From: Kistimonas scapharcae
GTDB taxonomy: Bacteria; Pseudomonadota; Gammaproteobacteria; Pseudomonadales; Endozoicomonadaceae
Length of the DNA: 24,000 nt
Reading direction: 5' to 3'
Assembly: GCF_039540975.1 (NCBI RefSeq)
Contig: NZ_BAABFL010000478.1
Span: 34,789-58,788, forward strand
The notes under the pieces are model-generated. The model saw nothing but the letters and a program-made list of their open reading frames with translations. It was not told where the DNA came from and searched no databases. The position numbers and the translations under genes were made by a program. Below are positions 7,783 through 13,291 of the stretch, one piece after another (the first letter of the stretch is position 1; every line of letters begins with the position of its first letter).

Positions 7783-8325
7783 TTAGAACGGAATATCATC
7801 ATCAAAATCATCAAAGCCGCCGGCCGGTGCTGACTGTGGCTGCGCCTGGGGAGCCTGTTGCGGCGCCTGCTGCTGAGGCTGGCCACTAAACCCGCCCTGC
7901 TGCTGTTGAGGCTGCTGGTAAGACTGCTGCTGACGAGGCGCACTCTGCTGCTGGTAGTCACCACCGCCCATGCCGTCCTGACGGCCGTCCAGCATCTGTA
8001 GCTGACCATTGATATCCACCACGATCTCAGTCGTGTAACGGTCCTGTCCCTGCTGATCCTGCCACTTGCGGGTCTGCAGCTTGCCTTCGATATACACTTT
8101 GGAGCCTTTGCGCAGGAACTGTCCTGCAATCTCCGCCAGCTTGCCAAATACCACGATCCGGTGCCACTCGGTCCGCTCGACCGGCTGGCCGGTCTGGCGA
8201 TCCTTCCAGGATTCACTGGTCGCCAGACTCAGGTTGCAGACCGCACTGCCATTGGGCGTGTAGCGGACTTCCGGATCGCCACCGAGATTGCCTATCAGGA
8301 TAACCTTGTTAACACCACGAGCCAT
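7783..8325 (-). CDS. ssb: Single-stranded DNA-binding protein SSB, 180 aa
   Basis: - [40 protein letters not shown] is the canonical OB-fold N-terminus.
- The linker is Gln/Pro/Gly-rich and disordered.
- The acidic tip is DDFDDDIPF.
- I place the start at the ATG at 8325 (MARGVNK), not the upstream in-frame ATG at 8352 used by the ORF track. Confidence 0.95.
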
Positions 8326-8790
8326 GTAACTCTCCCACCATTCAAGAATCAATAACCAGTTCTCTGGGCCAGACCATTCACTTCAGTCTACCCCGGATCG
8401 TCAAAACGCCGACACCTCGTACCTGACCTGCCACAGCCCGTGAACCCATGCCATCGTCCGCCCAGAGTCATAGGGTAACTGTTTATTATCCCAAACTCAG
8501 CGCATTTTCCAATTGGGAAATCATAGTATTACCCGTTTAGCCCTACTTATCTGACCCATTCTCCCGATACGGGTTCACCGCCCCGTCCTATGAAAAAATA
8601 AATATTTTTAAAAACAATGAGTTACCAGAAAAACAACGGACAAACCCTATAACCTTTTGATTTTATTGAACATTTTACATTTCCCGACATCCCTCAAGCG
8701 CTCCCGCACGTTAAATACGCCTAAACTCAACATATTAGGGGCAGTTTCTCATGGCATAGGCCATAAACACCATCAGAAGCCAGTACCAGC

Positions 8791-9837
8791 GTGAATAAAG
8801 GACAGCATTCAATCCAGGGGATCAGTCTTGTCGAAGCCATGATCGTGCTCTTCGTGATGGGCGTGGTCTCGGCGTTTGCTGTCACTACCTACCAGAAATA
8901 CACGACCCGAGCGAAAGTCATGGAGGCCAGCCAGCTGGCCTATGAGGTCAGACAGGCCGTAGAAGCCCATGTTTCCACCCGTCGGACGTTGCCCTCCAAT
9001 CTGAACCGCGTCTACAGCAGTAAAAATATGAAGGTCGTGGAGCGCCTGGAAGCCATCCGAACAGGACCGACAGAATTCAGAATCAACGTTTATATCAGAA
9101 AGGACGTTTTTCCGGATAAATCCGAGCAGCAGGTCTTTACTTTGCACGGTAATCTTATTGATGGCGCCATTCGCTGGAATGATTGCGGCGCTAATAATTG
9201 TATTACGGATGTGTCCAACCTGCCTGTAACCCAGTCAAACCTGCCCCCCATAGCGACGGCGGGAGATATCGTCATTGCCACTGCACCACCAGCGCCGGCT
9301 CCGGTGCCGGTGCCGGTGCCGGTGCCAGTTCCAACACCGACCCCAGCGCCAGCACCCGTGCCTGCGCCAGTTCCAGCACCCACTCCAGCACCTCCACCGG
9401 TTCCAGCTCCCAAACCGACACCATCGCAAAAACCCGTGCAGGCTCCTGTTCCTACACCGTATCCAGCCCCAACACCGGTGCCAACACCAACGCCATCGTC
9501 TGGGGGCGGCGGTTCAGAAACCTTTGTCACCAAAAACAAGGATCCGATCTGGAGCGATACACACGCCCTGTCCGAGTGCCCCGGCCGCTGTGGCGCAGAG
9601 CATGGCAAGTGGAATGGGCAGTGGTGGACTATCGTCTATGGCAAACATTCTGTGTGTCAGTGCACGCCTCTGGATGTCTTTGTCACAGAAAATACCGCGC
9701 CGATCTGGAGTGATTCGGATGCAGAGGCTAAATGCCCTTCACGCTGTAATGCAGAGGATGGGAACTGGACAGGGCACTGGTGGACCACCGTGTATGGCGC
9801 ACACTCTGTTTGCCAATGCGAAGAGCAGTACCCCTGA
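8791..9837 (+). CDS. Modular type IVa pilin: prepilin N-terminus and small pilin head, Pro/Ala/Val-rich linker, two MVL-like Cys-containing lectin modules, 348 aa
   Basis: - GTG start; leader MNKGQHSIQG then ISLVEAMIVLFVMGVVSAFAVTTYQKYTTRAKV. This gives Gly-1 and Glu+5, a hydrophobic alpha-1 helix, and YQKYTTRAKV resembling PilA YQDYTARTQV.
- Short Cys loop C132-x4-C137.
- Proline-rich linker at aa ~165-236, followed by GGGGS.
- Two ~50-aa repeats, each with 4 Cys and an NGQW/TGHW motif. Confidence 0.8.
   Translation: MNKGQHSIQGISLVEAMIVLFVMGVVSAFAVTTYQKYTTRAKVMEASQLAYEVRQAVEAHVSTRRTLPSNLNRVYSSKNMKVVERLEAIRTGPTEFRINVYIRKDVFPDKSEQQVFTLHGNLIDGAIRWNDCGANNCITDVSNLPVTQSNLPPIATAGDIVIATAPPAPAPVPVPVPVPVPTPTPAPAPVPAPVPAPTPAPPPVPAPKPTPSQKPVQAPVPTPYPAPTPVPTPTPSSGGGGSETFVTKNKDPIWSDTHALSECPGRCGAEHGKWNGQWWTIVYGKHSVCQCTPLDVFVTENTAPIWSDSDAEAKCPSRCNAEDGNWTGHWWTTVYGAHSVCQCEEQYP
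9301..9324 (+). repeat. Perfect hexanucleotide tandem repeat (CCGGTG)x4 inside the pilin linker, encoding (PV)4
   Basis: Read directly: ccggtg ccggtg ccggtg ccggtg at 9301-9324. It is embedded in a longer degenerate CCN-GYN repeat region, ~9283-9498. Confidence 0.95.
9517..9822 (+). other. Tandem duplicated MVL-like (mannan-binding lectin type) modules of the pilin
   Basis: - Module 1 (aa 243-292): ETFVTKNKDPIWSDTHALSECPGRCGAEHGKWNGQWWTIVYGKHSVCQCTP.
- Module 2 (aa 293-344): LDVFVTENTAPIWSDSDAEAKCPSRCNAEDGNWTGHWWTTVYGAHSVCQC.
- The pattern PIWS-D...A...CP..C.AE.G.W.G(Q/H)WWT.VYG.HSVC.C parallels the Microcystis viridis lectin repeat GPLWSN.EAQ...FTGQWTT.V...MSV, recalled from memory. Confidence 0.6.
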
Positions 9838-9901: not shown

Positions 9902-11278
9902 TCAAGAAATCAGTGCAACCGTCTGACGCGCCAACTCAGAAATCCGGACTTTCTCATAACCCGGCACGTAGGTTTCCAGCTGGTCGGCCAACGGTTCTGC
10001 CCACTCTGGTGTCACACAGGCTGGGTTCATCACACCCAGCACGGTTCCCACTTCACCGGCATTGCAATCCACATCTTCACCGCAATCCCCCAGGATCCGC
10101 ATGGCGCGGGTAAAGTTGTTGTCGCAGAACCACAGCGAAAGCACAACCGCTACCATATTCGGGAACGTATGAATCCAGTTGTAAGTTCGCAGTTCATTCT
10201 GCTTCATGGACTGCCAGACTTCCCGATGATCGCCATATTGCTCAGACAATTCGACGGTCCGGTCAAACAGATGCGCAAATAACGTGTTATCGGGAATATA
10301 ACCGCGGGAAGCCCGCACAACGGCACGGGCATCATCCATGATAAACGCCAGTGAGGTCAGAACCGCTGCATGGATTCCGCCATATACACCGTTTTTCTCA
10401 TGGGAGATCACACTGTCGCGATACGCCAGCTCAGCAGCCCGCCAGGGTTTGCCGGGCGCAAGCATGCCGTGAACCATGGTGCGCATCTGGGCACCAATCC
10501 ATTCCGAGTAAAAATTCAAACAGGTTCCTGACTGCGGCGGCATAATGCCACGGCGCAGGTTCTCCAGCGCAAAGTGCTCAGCAGACCAGCCATAGGGAAT
10601 ATAACGCAGCCACTCTTCCGCGATATCCTGGCTGGAAAAATTCGCATTCTTCCGTGCCGCTTCAAGGACACACAGTTCATAGGTCACATCATCATTCATG
10701 GTTTCCGGTTCCCGGACATAGCCGTTCAACCGATCCCCATAAAACGCATTCAGCTGTTCGCCCGAAAAACCTTCCAGCGCTGTGCCATAAGCACCACCGG
10801 CAATCTGACCCAGCCAGCCGCCATAAACTTTCTCACTCAGGCAATGGCCAGCCGTATCACCATCCAGCTTATCCACTGCCGGGCAAGCCGCGCGGATCGC
10901 CTCAAACGTTTCCGGTGCCTGATATTGCCAGTACACACTGCTTTCATCTTTAGGGGCATTAGCAAGGGCCTGCTGGATTCTCGCCCCCAGCACTTCCATG
11001 GTTCCGTGATCATTCTGTTCACGGGCATCACGGCCGACGGAGAGCCATTGTTCCGCTTCACTGACATCGTAGCCCCTGTTGTGCCAGGCCTGAATCATTT
11101 CCATGAAGGGGATTTCCGGCGCATTGGAACCGGGTACTTCACTTTTCCAGAACTTGGCCATCATGTTGCGGCGAGCCTTCAGAATGCCGTCCACAAACGA
11201 CCAGTCGGAAGGTTTTTCCTCAAACGGCTTGGGTACCGCATTCAGACGAATATCCCGGTCTTGTTCCCAGGCTTTCAT
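9902..11278 (-). CDS. ADP-ribosylglycohydrolase (ARH/DraG) family protein with ~150-aa N-terminal extension, 458 aa
   Basis: ARH-family blocks are GGWLGQIAGGAYGTALEG (motif 1), TMNDDVTYE (metal-binding DD), HEKNGVYGGIHAAVLTSLA and CGEDVDCNAGEVGTVLG (equivalent to GGDTDT.A). The start overlaps the upstream permease stop by 4 nt (ATGA, 11275-11278). Confidence 0.8.
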   Translation of the reverse strand: MKAWEQDRDIRLNAVPKPFEEKPSDWSFVDGILKARRNMMAKFWKSEVPGSNAPEIPFMEMIQAWHNRGYDVSEAEQWLSVGRDAREQNDHGTMEVLGARIQQALANAPKDESSVYWQYQAPETFEAIRAACPAVDKLDGDTAGHCLSEKVYGGWLGQIAGGAYGTALEGFSGEQLNAFYGDRLNGYVREPETMNDDVTYELCVLEAARKNANFSSQDIAEEWLRYIPYGWSAEHFALENLRRGIMPPQSGTCLNFYSEWIGAQMRTMVHGMLAPGKPWRAAELAYRDSVISHEKNGVYGGIHAAVLTSLAFIMDDARAVVRASRGYIPDNTLFAHLFDRTVELSEQYGDHREVWQSMKQNELRTYNWIHTFPNMVAVVLSLWFCDNNFTRAMRILGDCGEDVDCNAGEVGTVLGVMNPACVTPEWAEPLADQLETYVPGYEKVRISELARQTVALIS

Positions 11279-12222
11279 ACTGCAACTGCCTCTTTATCCA
11301 TACCGGCCTGCTGGCTGGTATTTACTTGTTTTCCGTTTCGTTTCTGTTTTTCCCGGGAATACCAGTACAGCGCCAGCAAGGTCACGATATACGGCACCAT
11401 CTGGGTAAATTCAGAAGGAATGATGGAATCCTGCAACGCGAATCCAAGACCATCCGTAAAACCGAACAGCAGGGACATGACCAGGATACCGATGGGACGT
11501 CCACGGGTCAGGATGATCACGGCCAGGGATATCCAGCCCCGTCCGTTCGACATATCTTCAGCAAAAAGGCGAACATAGCCCAGTGACAGGAACACACCTG
11601 CCAGACCACAGAGAGCTCCGGACAACAGCAGCGACTGGATCTTGAGCCGGTCGGAACTGATACCCACGGCATCCACAGCCCGGCTTTCTTCACCTGCCGC
11701 CCGCAGTCTTAGACCGAAGCGGGTATGGAACAGGTGGAAATGCACCAGGAAAACAACGACAAATGTCATATATAACAGAAAGGGGTGACCGCTCACGATA
11801 TCGCCAATAACCGGGATATCCTGCACCAGCGGGATATTCCAGACGGGCAAACCCTCGATGCGCGGAGACACAAACGCACCTTTTACATGAAACAGCTGTC
11901 GTAGAAGATAGGTTGTGCCGCCTGCTGCCAACAAGTTCATGGCGATACCAGTGACAAATTCATCCGTTTTCATTTTCACGGCAAAAAAGGCTGTCACGGA
12001 CGCCGCCAGCAAACCGCCTGCCATACCGAACAACAAACCGCCCATCCAGGACCCGGTCACGTAACTGCCCGCTACGGCACAAAAAGCACCTATCAACATC
12101 ATCCCTTCCATGGCGATATTGAAAACATTGGCGTGATGGGTATACAAACCACCCAGTGCCGCCAGCAGAATCGGCACCGCAGCAGGCAGGGTTGCGCGGA
12201 ACAACTCAAGAAACAGATCCAT
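11275..12222 (-). CDS. ABC transporter permease (BMP/nucleoside-type importer, second permease), ~315 aa
   Basis: Multi-span hydrophobic protein of the branched-chain/sugar (BPD_transp_2-like) permease type. I prefer the ATG at 12222 (MDLFLELFRATLPAAVPILLAALGG), which overlaps the upstream permease stop (12206) by 17 nt, over the upstream in-frame ATG at 12276 used by the ORF track. Confidence 0.85.
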   Translation of the reverse strand: MDLFLELFRATLPAAVPILLAALGGLYTHHANVFNIAMEGMMLIGAFCAVAGSYVTGSWMGGLLFGMAGGLLAASVTAFFAVKMKTDEFVTGIAMNLLAAGGTTYLLRQLFHVKGAFVSPRIEGLPVWNIPLVQDIPVIGDIVSGHPFLLYMTFVVVFLVHFHLFHTRFGLRLRAAGEESRAVDAVGISSDRLKIQSLLLSGALCGLAGVFLSLGYVRLFAEDMSNGRGWISLAVIILTRGRPIGILVMSLLFGFTDGLGFALQDSIIPSEFTQMVPYIVTLLALYWYSREKQKRNGKQVNTSQQAGMDKEAVAV

Positions 12223-13291
12223 GAACCCTCTCCTCAGCCGGCTGCCGGGTGGTGGCCAGCGCATCACTGGCGACACGACGGGCGATCAACTGGTTCACCA
12301 ATCGCCGTGAAACCTCCCGCGACGCAACAACAAACAACACGATAATGGCCTGGAAGACCATGATGAATTCAGACGGCACCCGGGTTTCCAGCTCCATGCC
12401 CAGTGCGCCATTTTGAAGGACAGCAAACAACAGCGCGTACAAAGATGTCGCCAGTACCTGACAGTTGGCGATAATCGCCAGCATGACGCCATCCCAGCCA
12501 TAAGTACCACCAATACCGATCAGGAACTGATGCTGAATGCCACCCATAATCAGCAACCCGCCTGCCAGACCGGCCAAAGCACCAGAAATCATCATGGCAC
12601 GGGTGAAATTCTCCCGATTATGGCAACCACCGATCCGGGTAAAGACCGGGTTCAATCCCATCATCCGCATTTCATAGCCGGCACGTGACCGGTTCCAGAG
12701 GATATAAATGCCTCCCAAAGCGACCAGTGCGACAAGAATCGAACTGCTGATACTACCCAACGCCGGTAGATGGCCACCATCGGCAATCGGCGGCGACATC
12801 GGGGTATTGGCATTGGCCATCTTGACGGGGCCGCGCACCATCCACAGGGTAAAGTACTCCGCCAGGAAGTTGAGCATCAGGGTTGAGATGAACTCATTCA
12901 TGTTAAATCGATTGCGCAGCCAGGCTGCGATACCACACCACAGTCCACCAGCGATAGCAGCTGTGGCTAACAACAACGGCAGCATCAATGGCGCCGGCAG
13001 ATCCACGACCAATCCAACCGTGGTCACCGCCATGGCGCCCATCAGCACCTGCCCCAACTGCCCCAGGTTGACAGCGTTGCTGCCAAAGGCAGCAGTGGCC
13101 GACAATCCCGTCAGTATCAGCGGCGCCGCACGTTGCAGGGTGCCACCCAACGACATTTCCGACATCAGGCTGTATTCAATCAGCGCCATGAAGCCACGCG
13201 GTGCGTCATAGCCCTGTGCAGCCAGAATGGCCATACCTGCCAAAAAGGCACAGAGCACACCAGCCAGGGCGATTAACAGGTCTTTTTTCAT
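12206..13291 (-). CDS. ABC transporter permease (BMP/nucleoside-type importer, first permease), 361 aa
   Basis: About 8-10 hydrophobic helices, in operon context. ATGA overlap with the ATPase gene stop at 13288-13291. Confidence 0.85.
   Translation of the reverse strand: MKKDLLIALAGVLCAFLAGMAILAAQGYDAPRGFMALIEYSLMSEMSLGGTLQRAAPLILTGLSATAAFGSNAVNLGQLGQVLMGAMAVTTVGLVVDLPAPLMLPLLLATAAIAGGLWCGIAAWLRNRFNMNEFISTLMLNFLAEYFTLWMVRGPVKMANANTPMSPPIADGGHLPALGSISSSILVALVALGGIYILWNRSRAGYEMRMMGLNPVFTRIGGCHNRENFTRAMMISGALAGLAGGLLIMGGIQHQFLIGIGGTYGWDGVMLAIIANCQVLATSLYALLFAVLQNGALGMELETRVPSEFIMVFQAIIVLFVVASREVSRRLVNQLIARRVASDALATTRQPAEERVHGSVS

Follow-up and report, generated by a model that had tools for sequence, protein, structure and literature searches.

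A candidate modular type IV pilin of Kistimonas scapharcae with two MVL-type lectin modules on a proline-rich stalk

Introduction

Can a bacterial gene annotated as encoding a mannan-binding protein be the gene of a pilus subunit? This question is raised by an open reading frame (ORF) at positions 8791–9837 of a 24,000-nucleotide stretch of Kistimonas scapharcae DNA (assembly GCF_039540975.1, contig NZ_BAABFL010000478.1, positions 34,789 to 58,788 of the forward strand), the whole of which is called the window here. An initial annotation, made from the sequence alone, had described the product as an orphan type IV pilin fused through a long proline-rich stalk to two modules similar to the mannan-binding lectin MVL. 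We have followed up this description by homology searches, structure prediction and comparison of related genes, and we favour, with some reservation, the view that the product of this gene is a modular type IV pilin composed of a type IVa pilin, a Pro-rich stalk and two MVL lectin heads. Members of the genus Kistimonas are associates, and possible pathogens, of marine invertebrates, and K. scapharcae is clam-associated.

Type IV pili rank among the major organelles of adhesion, and it is still debated how a filament of simple build acquires binding specificity. Modular pilins, studied mainly in one Gram-positive species, provide one answer. More than 1,200 InterPro proteins with 264 architectures, including several carbohydrate-binding modules, are known (PMC8179133). 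Streptococcus sanguinis PilB is a pilin with a vWA module (PMC8179133, Raynaud et al. 2021), and PilC carries a ConA-like lectin and was modelled in a tip complex (PMC9934059).

Results

The gene is a single intact ORF of 348 codons on the + strand with a GTG start, and its product is identical (100%, full length) to the NCBI entry 'mannan-binding protein [Kistimonas scapharcae]'. The GTG at 8791 is the sole in-frame start 5' of the class III motif, and an in-frame TAA (8764–8766) lies nine codons upstream of it. As the initial annotation stated, the protein begins with a class III signal, MNKGQHSIQG/ISLVE, with Gly at −1 and Glu at +5. The leader is short and hydrophilic, and its last residue, G10, is invariant in the alignment of the protein family described below. 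The same holds for E15 in I11-S-L-V-E15, which is followed by the hydrophobic stretch AMIVLFVMGVVSAFAV. The α1 helix has Ile at +1, Glu at +5 and a hydrophobic α1N part, and continues with YQKYTTRAKVMEA, which aligns with YQDYTARAQVSEA of PilE. Residues 12–70 align in register and without gaps with mature residues 2–60 of Neisseria PilE (E=3.5e-6), so that the predicted cleavage site falls exactly after Gly10.

The family profile matched PilE with E=7e-12, the alignment with N. meningitidis PilE spanning profile positions 11–133. In the AlphaFold2 model of the pilin module (mean predicted local distance difference test score, pLDDT, 74), an extended α1 helix of the pilin type (about 53 residues) covers residues 13–64 and is followed by a β-sheet head of four to six strands (71–74, 83–90, 95–102, 114–123, 126–129 and 138–140). 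The five best matches of this model in a Foldseek search of the PDB were all type IVa major pilins, with a probability of 0.97–1.00 for four of them and 0.91 for one, template modelling (TM) scores of 0.40–0.54 and E-values of 0.026–0.2. The cysteines C132 and C137, which enclose a loop of merely four residues, are kept in at least 90% of the family, and a conserved segment G-D-I-V-I-A-T-A stands immediately ahead of the stalk. Both the alignment with type IVa pilins and the modelled fold are in agreement with the PilA-like α1 helix and small head with a C-x4-C loop that had been noticed before.

The C-terminal part consists of two modules (52 and 54 residues) with four Cys each, identical to each other at 31 of 52 aligned positions. 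The Pfam profile PF12151 (MVL) matched two stretches of the protein with 69.7 bits (E=2e-19; cut-off 25 bits), or 74.4 bits when the C-terminus was searched alone, the best stretch being residues 309–343, aligned with profile positions 2–36 of 36. In a sequence search against all solved structures, MVL (1zhq/1zhs) was the sole match (E=3.8e-11). The motifs P-[IL]-W-S-[ND] and T-G-[QH]-W-x-T are conserved between MVL and both modules; in an alignment of 45 sequences, P-[IL]-W-[SN], G-[QH]-W-x-T and S-V of each module fall in near-invariant columns. These are motifs of the MVL cleft and presumably include its sugar-contact residues. An AlphaFold2 model of residues 239–348, built with 45 relatives, had a mean pLDDT of 90, and Foldseek matched it in the PDB to apo-MVL (1zhq_A, E=1.1e-8, probability 1.00) and to nothing else with E<0.3. 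The proposed MVL-like nature of the two repeats of about 50 residues is thus borne out by profile and predicted structure alike. Most bacterial MVL relatives also have four Cys per module, whereas MVL itself has none; this fits folding in an oxidising compartment. MVL recognises cores containing GlcNAc-β(1-4)GlcNAc (GlcNAc, N-acetylglucosamine; PMC3407925).

The pilin and lectin parts are joined by a linker of 77 residues, 45% of them Pro, so that the continuation of the reading frame through about 70 residues of PAPAPVPVPV, TPTP and GGGGS, as first described, was found again with slightly wider borders (Table 1). Its DNA is repetitive, with 4.3 copies of CCGGTG at 9301–9326 and 2.2 copies of a 78-nucleotide unit (73% match) at 9319–9490, which suggests that the stalk varies in length in frame. 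The stalks of the orthologs are only 42–71% identical, yet a length of 73–78 residues and a Pro content of 43–51% are retained. Much longer perfect repeats occur in the linkers of paralogues, for example about 18 copies of PPAG (locus L004, from 12238) and an uninterrupted run of about 60 Pro residues (locus L014, from 10028).

Table 1 Features of the pilin–MVL gene and other genes of the window
Feature	Residues	Positions	Strand	Remarks
GTG start and 10-residue leader, (M)NKGQHSIQG	1–10	8791–8820	+	Gly(−1); predicted prepilin-peptidase cleavage after nucleotide 8820
α1 helix of mature pilin	11–64	8821–8982	+	PilE alignment, family profile, AlphaFold2, dN/dS
Globular pilin head	65–165	8983–9285	+	β-sheet; C132-x4-C137 loop at nucleotides 9184–9201
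Pro-rich stalk	166–242	9286–9516	+	Ends with SSGGGGS
MVL module 1	243–294	9517–9672	+	Cys 263/267/289/291; PF12151, 1zhq, AlphaFold2
MVL module 2	295–348	9673–9837	+	Cys 315/319/341/343; PF12151; stop 9835–9837
ssb		7783–8352	−	
IpgD/SopB homologue	613 residues	18356–20197	−	PF05925, E=2.2e-79
uvrA		20329–23169	+	

Orthologs were found in synteny in K. asteriae KMD 001 and in two uncultured Kistimonas metagenome-assembled genomes (MAGs), the shared order being ssb, the pilin–MVL gene, a convergent ADP-ribosylglycohydrolase gene and a Bmp/ABC transporter operon. All four orthologous genes (two isolates, two MAGs) start with GTG and are uninterrupted over 348–352 codons. Both the pilin and the MVL parts are under strong purifying selection, the ratio of nonsynonymous to synonymous substitution rates (dN/dS) between orthologs being 0.04–0.07 in the pilin module and 0.06–0.17 in the MVL modules. 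One MAG paralogue that is frameshifted within its linker might raise the suspicion that a pilin gene and a lectin gene were joined by an error of assembly or in a pseudogene. The conserved ORF and the selection acting on it in four independently assembled genomes rule out a sequencing frameshift or chance fusion between the two parts. We have rejected this explanation, the probability of which is negligible.

For residues 1–35, dN/dS was 0.08–0.14 in five of the six ortholog pairs, the sixth pair having no amino acid change. This codon-level selection argues that translation covers the leader and supports the start upstream of the pilin N-terminus that the initial annotation presupposed. A GTG is found nine codons before the Gly(−1) codon in 21 of 23 family genes, in nine of which it is the sole in-frame start. 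It would seem, then, that initiation at GTG and a leader of 10 residues are common to the family. These results bear on the possibility that the product is an ordinary secreted 'mannan-binding protein', as its NCBI name suggests, with a start at Met17, a Sec signal or anchor and a fortuitous likeness to pilins. Such a protein would be in line with the lack of a clear Shine–Dalgarno sequence before the GTG and with the absence of a class III motif from the top MVL matches outside the family. However, residues 1–16 are under purifying selection, the GTG keeps its position across the family, the PilE match (E=7e-12) is in register, residues 11–140 have a predicted pilin fold, and the scores of several paralogues exceed the N_methyl cut-off of Pfam. 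We have therefore rejected a Sec-secreted lectin with its start at Met17 as very improbable. A scan for promoters and terminators gave counts similar to those in shuffled sequence, with no + strand site adjoining the gene.

The distribution of the architecture was examined by several searches. A word-index homology search returned mostly unrelated Pro-rich proteins with the full protein, no matches with the pilin part alone and two with the MVL part. With a query from which the linker had been excised, an exhaustive search by HMMER among 1.84 billion representative proteins yielded about a dozen that matched the pilin module over its whole length, with E-values between 1e-62 and 1e-17. According to this search and a scan in which each species was represented by one genome, the family occurs only in Kistimonas genomes, one 'Oceanospirillales' MAG and ENA metagenome contigs, some of which stem from the same sample as the Kistimonas MAGs. 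All members have Gly(−1), Glu(+5), a chassis of about 150 residues, a C-x3-4-C loop and a G-G-I-x-I-A segment. In most copies, a Pro-rich linker, at most about 100 residues long, separates the chassis from variable heads; the eight copies of cluster 1 are nearly linkerless (4 residues in six of the eight). These stalked pilins, with their different heads, make up a small family that had not been described before. The class III motif was detected by a motif screen in none of the top MVL-family matches outside the family, the N-termini of which look like ordinary signal peptides, so that the combination of pilin and MVL seems to be rare. The survey called for by the initial annotation therefore places the pilin–linker–MVL architecture in a family confined to narrow Kistimonas-linked sources. 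The term 'orphan' holds for the locus, not for the gene, which belongs to a multi-copy family.

Comparison of 29 family members revealed three clusters of heads and some others. An MVL head was present in seven members (two modules, one in P0100). Twelve have Cys-containing modules with a 'YP..DF.P...CY' motif in one or two copies (plus other modules in L016), and eight have the head type of P0104, without a Pfam match in those scanned (P0104 and P0106). The remaining two are a frameshifted copy and L015, which has a multi-repeat head and 733 mature residues. In addition to MVL, the family thus uses at least two unknown types of Cys-containing modules, and the modules occur in 1–5 copies. At least five and up to eight copies were found per Kistimonas genome examined, at three or four loci, one of which, between a gene for an SNF-family transporter and lipA, holds two or three tandem copies. 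K. scapharcae has at least one further member, P0244. The chassis of the MVL-headed gene at the SNF–lipA locus is 72–79% identical to chassis with unrelated heads and 40% identical to the chassis encoded in the window, and the single MVL module of P0100 is carried by a third chassis type. These discordant histories of heads and chassis point to head exchange or repeated acquisition.

Several members and relatives show peculiarities. Locus L004 (10001–11588) of a Kistimonas MAG contains a paralogue split into ORFs of 282 and 252 amino acids by a frameshift in the Pro-rich linker, which is either a pseudogene, a repeat assembly error or a phase-variable switch. Loci L015 (9932–12211) and L016 (about 10000–12565) encode giant members of 733 and 848 mature residues with the cleavage motif G|HSALE and at least four repeated head modules, with no Pfam match in L015, the one scanned. 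At locus L012 (6426–20135), two stalkless pilin paralogues of the P0104 type alternate with three proteins of 1148–1221 amino acids which combine a MauG-like di-haem cytochrome c peroxidase domain with FG-GAP repeats and an ASPIC/UnbV domain. A free MVL tandem protein of 127 amino acids with an ordinary-looking signal peptide (P0107) is encoded at locus L019 (5534–5917), beside a gene for a eukaryote-like Ser/Thr kinase. It shares the unusual module start 'F-S/V-T-x-N-x-D-P-I-W-S' with the pilin heads (50% identity) and could resemble the donor of the MVL head.

The presence of pilus machinery was assessed from a published gene-count table that includes K. scapharcae JCM 17805 (PMC12491435 Supplementary Data 4). 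One prepilin peptidase (COG1989), one each of PilM, PilN, PilO and PilP, a HofQ-type secretin, one PilT, two PilU, three GspE/PilB-type ATPases, two PulF/PilC platforms, minor pilins of the PilW, PilX and PilE types, PilY1 homologues and four secretins in all are listed for this strain (PMC12491435). According to the table, the genome thus contains a prepilin peptidase and a full type IVa pilus machinery with PilB/C/M/N/O/P/Q/T/U (PMC12491435), which the initial annotation had proposed to look for elsewhere in the genome, and a lack of peptidase or machinery cannot be held against a pilin. The counts of COG4969 ('major pilin PilA') in K. asteriae (five) and K. scapharcae (four) are the highest among the 47 Endozoicomonadaceae genomes shown, one Parendozoicomonas genome likewise having four (PMC12491435). 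This fits an expansion of the family in Kistimonas.

The same table, with its three ATPases, two platforms and four secretins (PMC12491435), would also accommodate a second reading, in which the protein is a subunit of another type IV filament, either a pseudopilus of a type II secretion system (T2SS) or a dedicated uncharacterised system, serving for surface display or release of the heads and not for adhesion by a retractile pilus. The N-terminus gave weak NCBIfam matches to PpdD and GspH/GspG as well as to PilA, and one paralogue is named 'GspH family' by NCBI. In contrast, the family profile matched PilE far better than the T2SS pseudopilin GspG (E=0.87), and the top structural matches were without exception type IVa pilins. 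We consider this reading unlikely.

Discussion

The gene encodes a protein in which a pilin module with the features of type IVa pilins, a Pro-rich stalk and two PF12151 modules follow each other in a conserved reading frame. In having two extra modules attached to a pilin module, it corresponds to the modular pilins sensu Raynaud et al. Within the library of papers searched, none names both 'pilin' and 'PF12151'. IPR021992 is presumably the InterPro identifier of the MVL family. Both PF12151 and IPR021992 are absent from the catalogue of modular pilins (PMC8179133 Dataset S1). The earlier statement that no described pilin with MVL-type modules on a flexible stalk is known is thus consistent with our finding no published pilin–MVL architecture.

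S. sanguinis PilC similarly combines a class III signal and an N-terminal pilin module with a C-terminal carbohydrate-binding module, for which adhesion to host glycans was proposed (PMC9934059). It differs in carrying an immunoglobulin-like module and the ConA-like lectin on short linkers, in being encoded in a pil locus of a monoderm and in being stabilised by PilA in the tip complex (PMC9934059), whereas the lectin part in Kistimonas comprises two modules of the unrelated MVL family, borne on a Pro-rich stalk of 77 residues, and the gene lies away from pilus genes in a diderm gammaproteobacterium. S. sanguinis PilB and the 264 catalogued architectures also represent functional modules grafted on a pilin carrier, but these pilins are defined by short linkers (PMC8179133). 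MVL (1zhq/1zhs) has the same two tandem modules of about 54 residues, the same Pfam family and motifs and, according to the model, the same fold. It is, however, a free cytoplasmic or secreted lectin of 113 residues which forms a domain-interlocked homodimer (PMC3407925), whereas the Kistimonas modules are tethered to a pilin. CofB of enterotoxigenic Escherichia coli (ETEC) shares a pilin module, a flexible linker, extra β-rich domains and a proposed position at the pilus tip (PMC8179133). In contrast to the Kistimonas protein, it belongs to the type IVb pilins, has its gene in the cof operon, forms a trimer and carries extra domains other than MVL, and its linker is not known to be a long stalk rich in Pro. 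The PilY1/PilC tip adhesins likewise place a variable adhesive module on the pilus and share modular N-termini with modular pilins (PMC8179133); PilY1 is nevertheless not a pilin and docks on the minor-pilin tip complex through a β-propeller. Modular pilins, lectin-bearing ones included, are thus already known, and what is new here is the MVL lectin family, the long stalk, the diderm host and the lineage-specific expansion with different heads.

On the basis of these features, the following course can be proposed. The hydrophobic α1N part would insert the protein into the inner membrane, and prepilin peptidase would cut the 10-residue leader after Gly10. In the periplasm, the cysteines would presumably be oxidised, C132 with C137 and those of each MVL module in two pairs. 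The type IVa machinery of Kistimonas may then incorporate the subunit into the filament through the α1 helix, most likely at low abundance and at or near the tip. Given the general dimensions of pili, the tip seems a likelier place than the shaft, since a 12-kDa head on the side of the fibre would need to travel through the secretin with it. The extended stalk would keep the two lectin heads, predicted to bind glycans, off the filament, and invertebrate host tissue, mucus or chitinous surfaces may be their targets. Stalked pilins are probably used for sticking to host or environmental glycans, and the same pilin chassis with different heads might provide a repertoire of pilus-displayed adhesins within this Kistimonas-restricted family.

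Several observations weigh against a pilin of this kind. The Pfam profile N_methyl (PF07963) scored 18.8–20.2 bits against a cut-off of 21.2, and TIGR02532 scored 9.9–11.4 against 16.3. The prepilin methylation motif claimed for the N-terminus is therefore below the profile thresholds, although the motif itself is present and the alignment with PilE is in register; the paralogues P0095, P0101 and P0111 pass PF07963 with 25.3, 21.7 and 30.1 bits, respectively. A score slightly under the cut-off means that surveys based on IPR012902 or on the motif miss this protein, which is an annotation gap in a protein named merely 'mannan-binding protein'. The residue at +1 is Ile here and Tyr, Phe or Met in most paralogues. 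The pilin model is of moderate confidence, and its Foldseek E-values are weak even for the best match. In the window, no pilus assembly gene was found, just as the initial annotation had reported, and none lies beside any paralogue examined, the neighbours of which encode transporters, oxidoreductases and CCP_MauG/FG-GAP/ASPIC proteins. The predicted arrangement of the two lectin domains differs from that in MVL (whole-chain TM score 0.41, attributed to a different angle between the domains), so that binding geometry and specificity may differ as well. Known modular pilins carry short linkers (PMC8179133), compared with 77 residues here and 4 to 100 across family members, and the secretin would have to let through a subunit to which 190 further residues are appended.

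Some of these points would suit a lectin that is anchored in the inner membrane and spans the periplasm. The pilin N-terminus, cleaved by PilD or not, would then be an anchor only, and the stalk a spacer like that of TonB, by which the heads reach GlcNAc-containing polymers of the envelope or the outer membrane. An N-terminal hydrophobic helix followed by a long Pro-rich spacer, the lack of adjacent pilus genes, the N_methyl score under the cut-off and the recognition of GlcNAc-β(1-4)GlcNAc-containing cores by MVL (PMC3407925) are all compatible with such a protein. An anchor does not account well for the conservation of the whole 150-residue pilin module (dN/dS 0.04–0.07) and for the invariance of Glu(+5) and Gly(−1) in the family. 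Moreover, the chassis is common to paralogues with unrelated heads, which fits a shared display scaffold better. We therefore regard a periplasmic lectin as rather improbable and prefer a modular type IV pilin.

If the gene product is such a pilin, the 5–8 or more stalked pilins per Kistimonas genome may form a system of combinatorial adhesin display, in which one chassis and one machinery serve for all the heads, heads are swapped by recombination in the repetitive DNA of the linkers, and repeat slippage varies the stalk length. This extension of the proposal is possible but doubtful. If true, a pilus could be re-targeted to different host glycans or tissues.

In this Gram-negative lineage, the idea of the modular pilin is expanded to a gene family in which one carrier is combined, mostly through a long stalk, with alternative heads, among them one that can be recognised as a lectin and for which a sugar preference is known. 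This provides a testable hypothesis for the attachment of Endozoicomonadaceae to invertebrate hosts. The combination of chassis and stalk is also a natural template for showing protein modules on pili.

In many gammaproteobacteria, ssb and uvrA are divergent neighbours; in the window, about 12 kb separate them. The interval is occupied by the pilin–MVL gene, the ADP-ribosylglycohydrolase gene, the Bmp/ABC operon and genes for a GNAT protein, an MFS transporter and an IpgD homologue, and may be an insertion-prone region. The last of these genes encodes a homologue of the inositol-phosphate phosphatase effectors IpgD/SopB (Table 1), as would suit a bacterium that interacts with a host. This gene also occurs at L001, the syntenic locus of a MAG.

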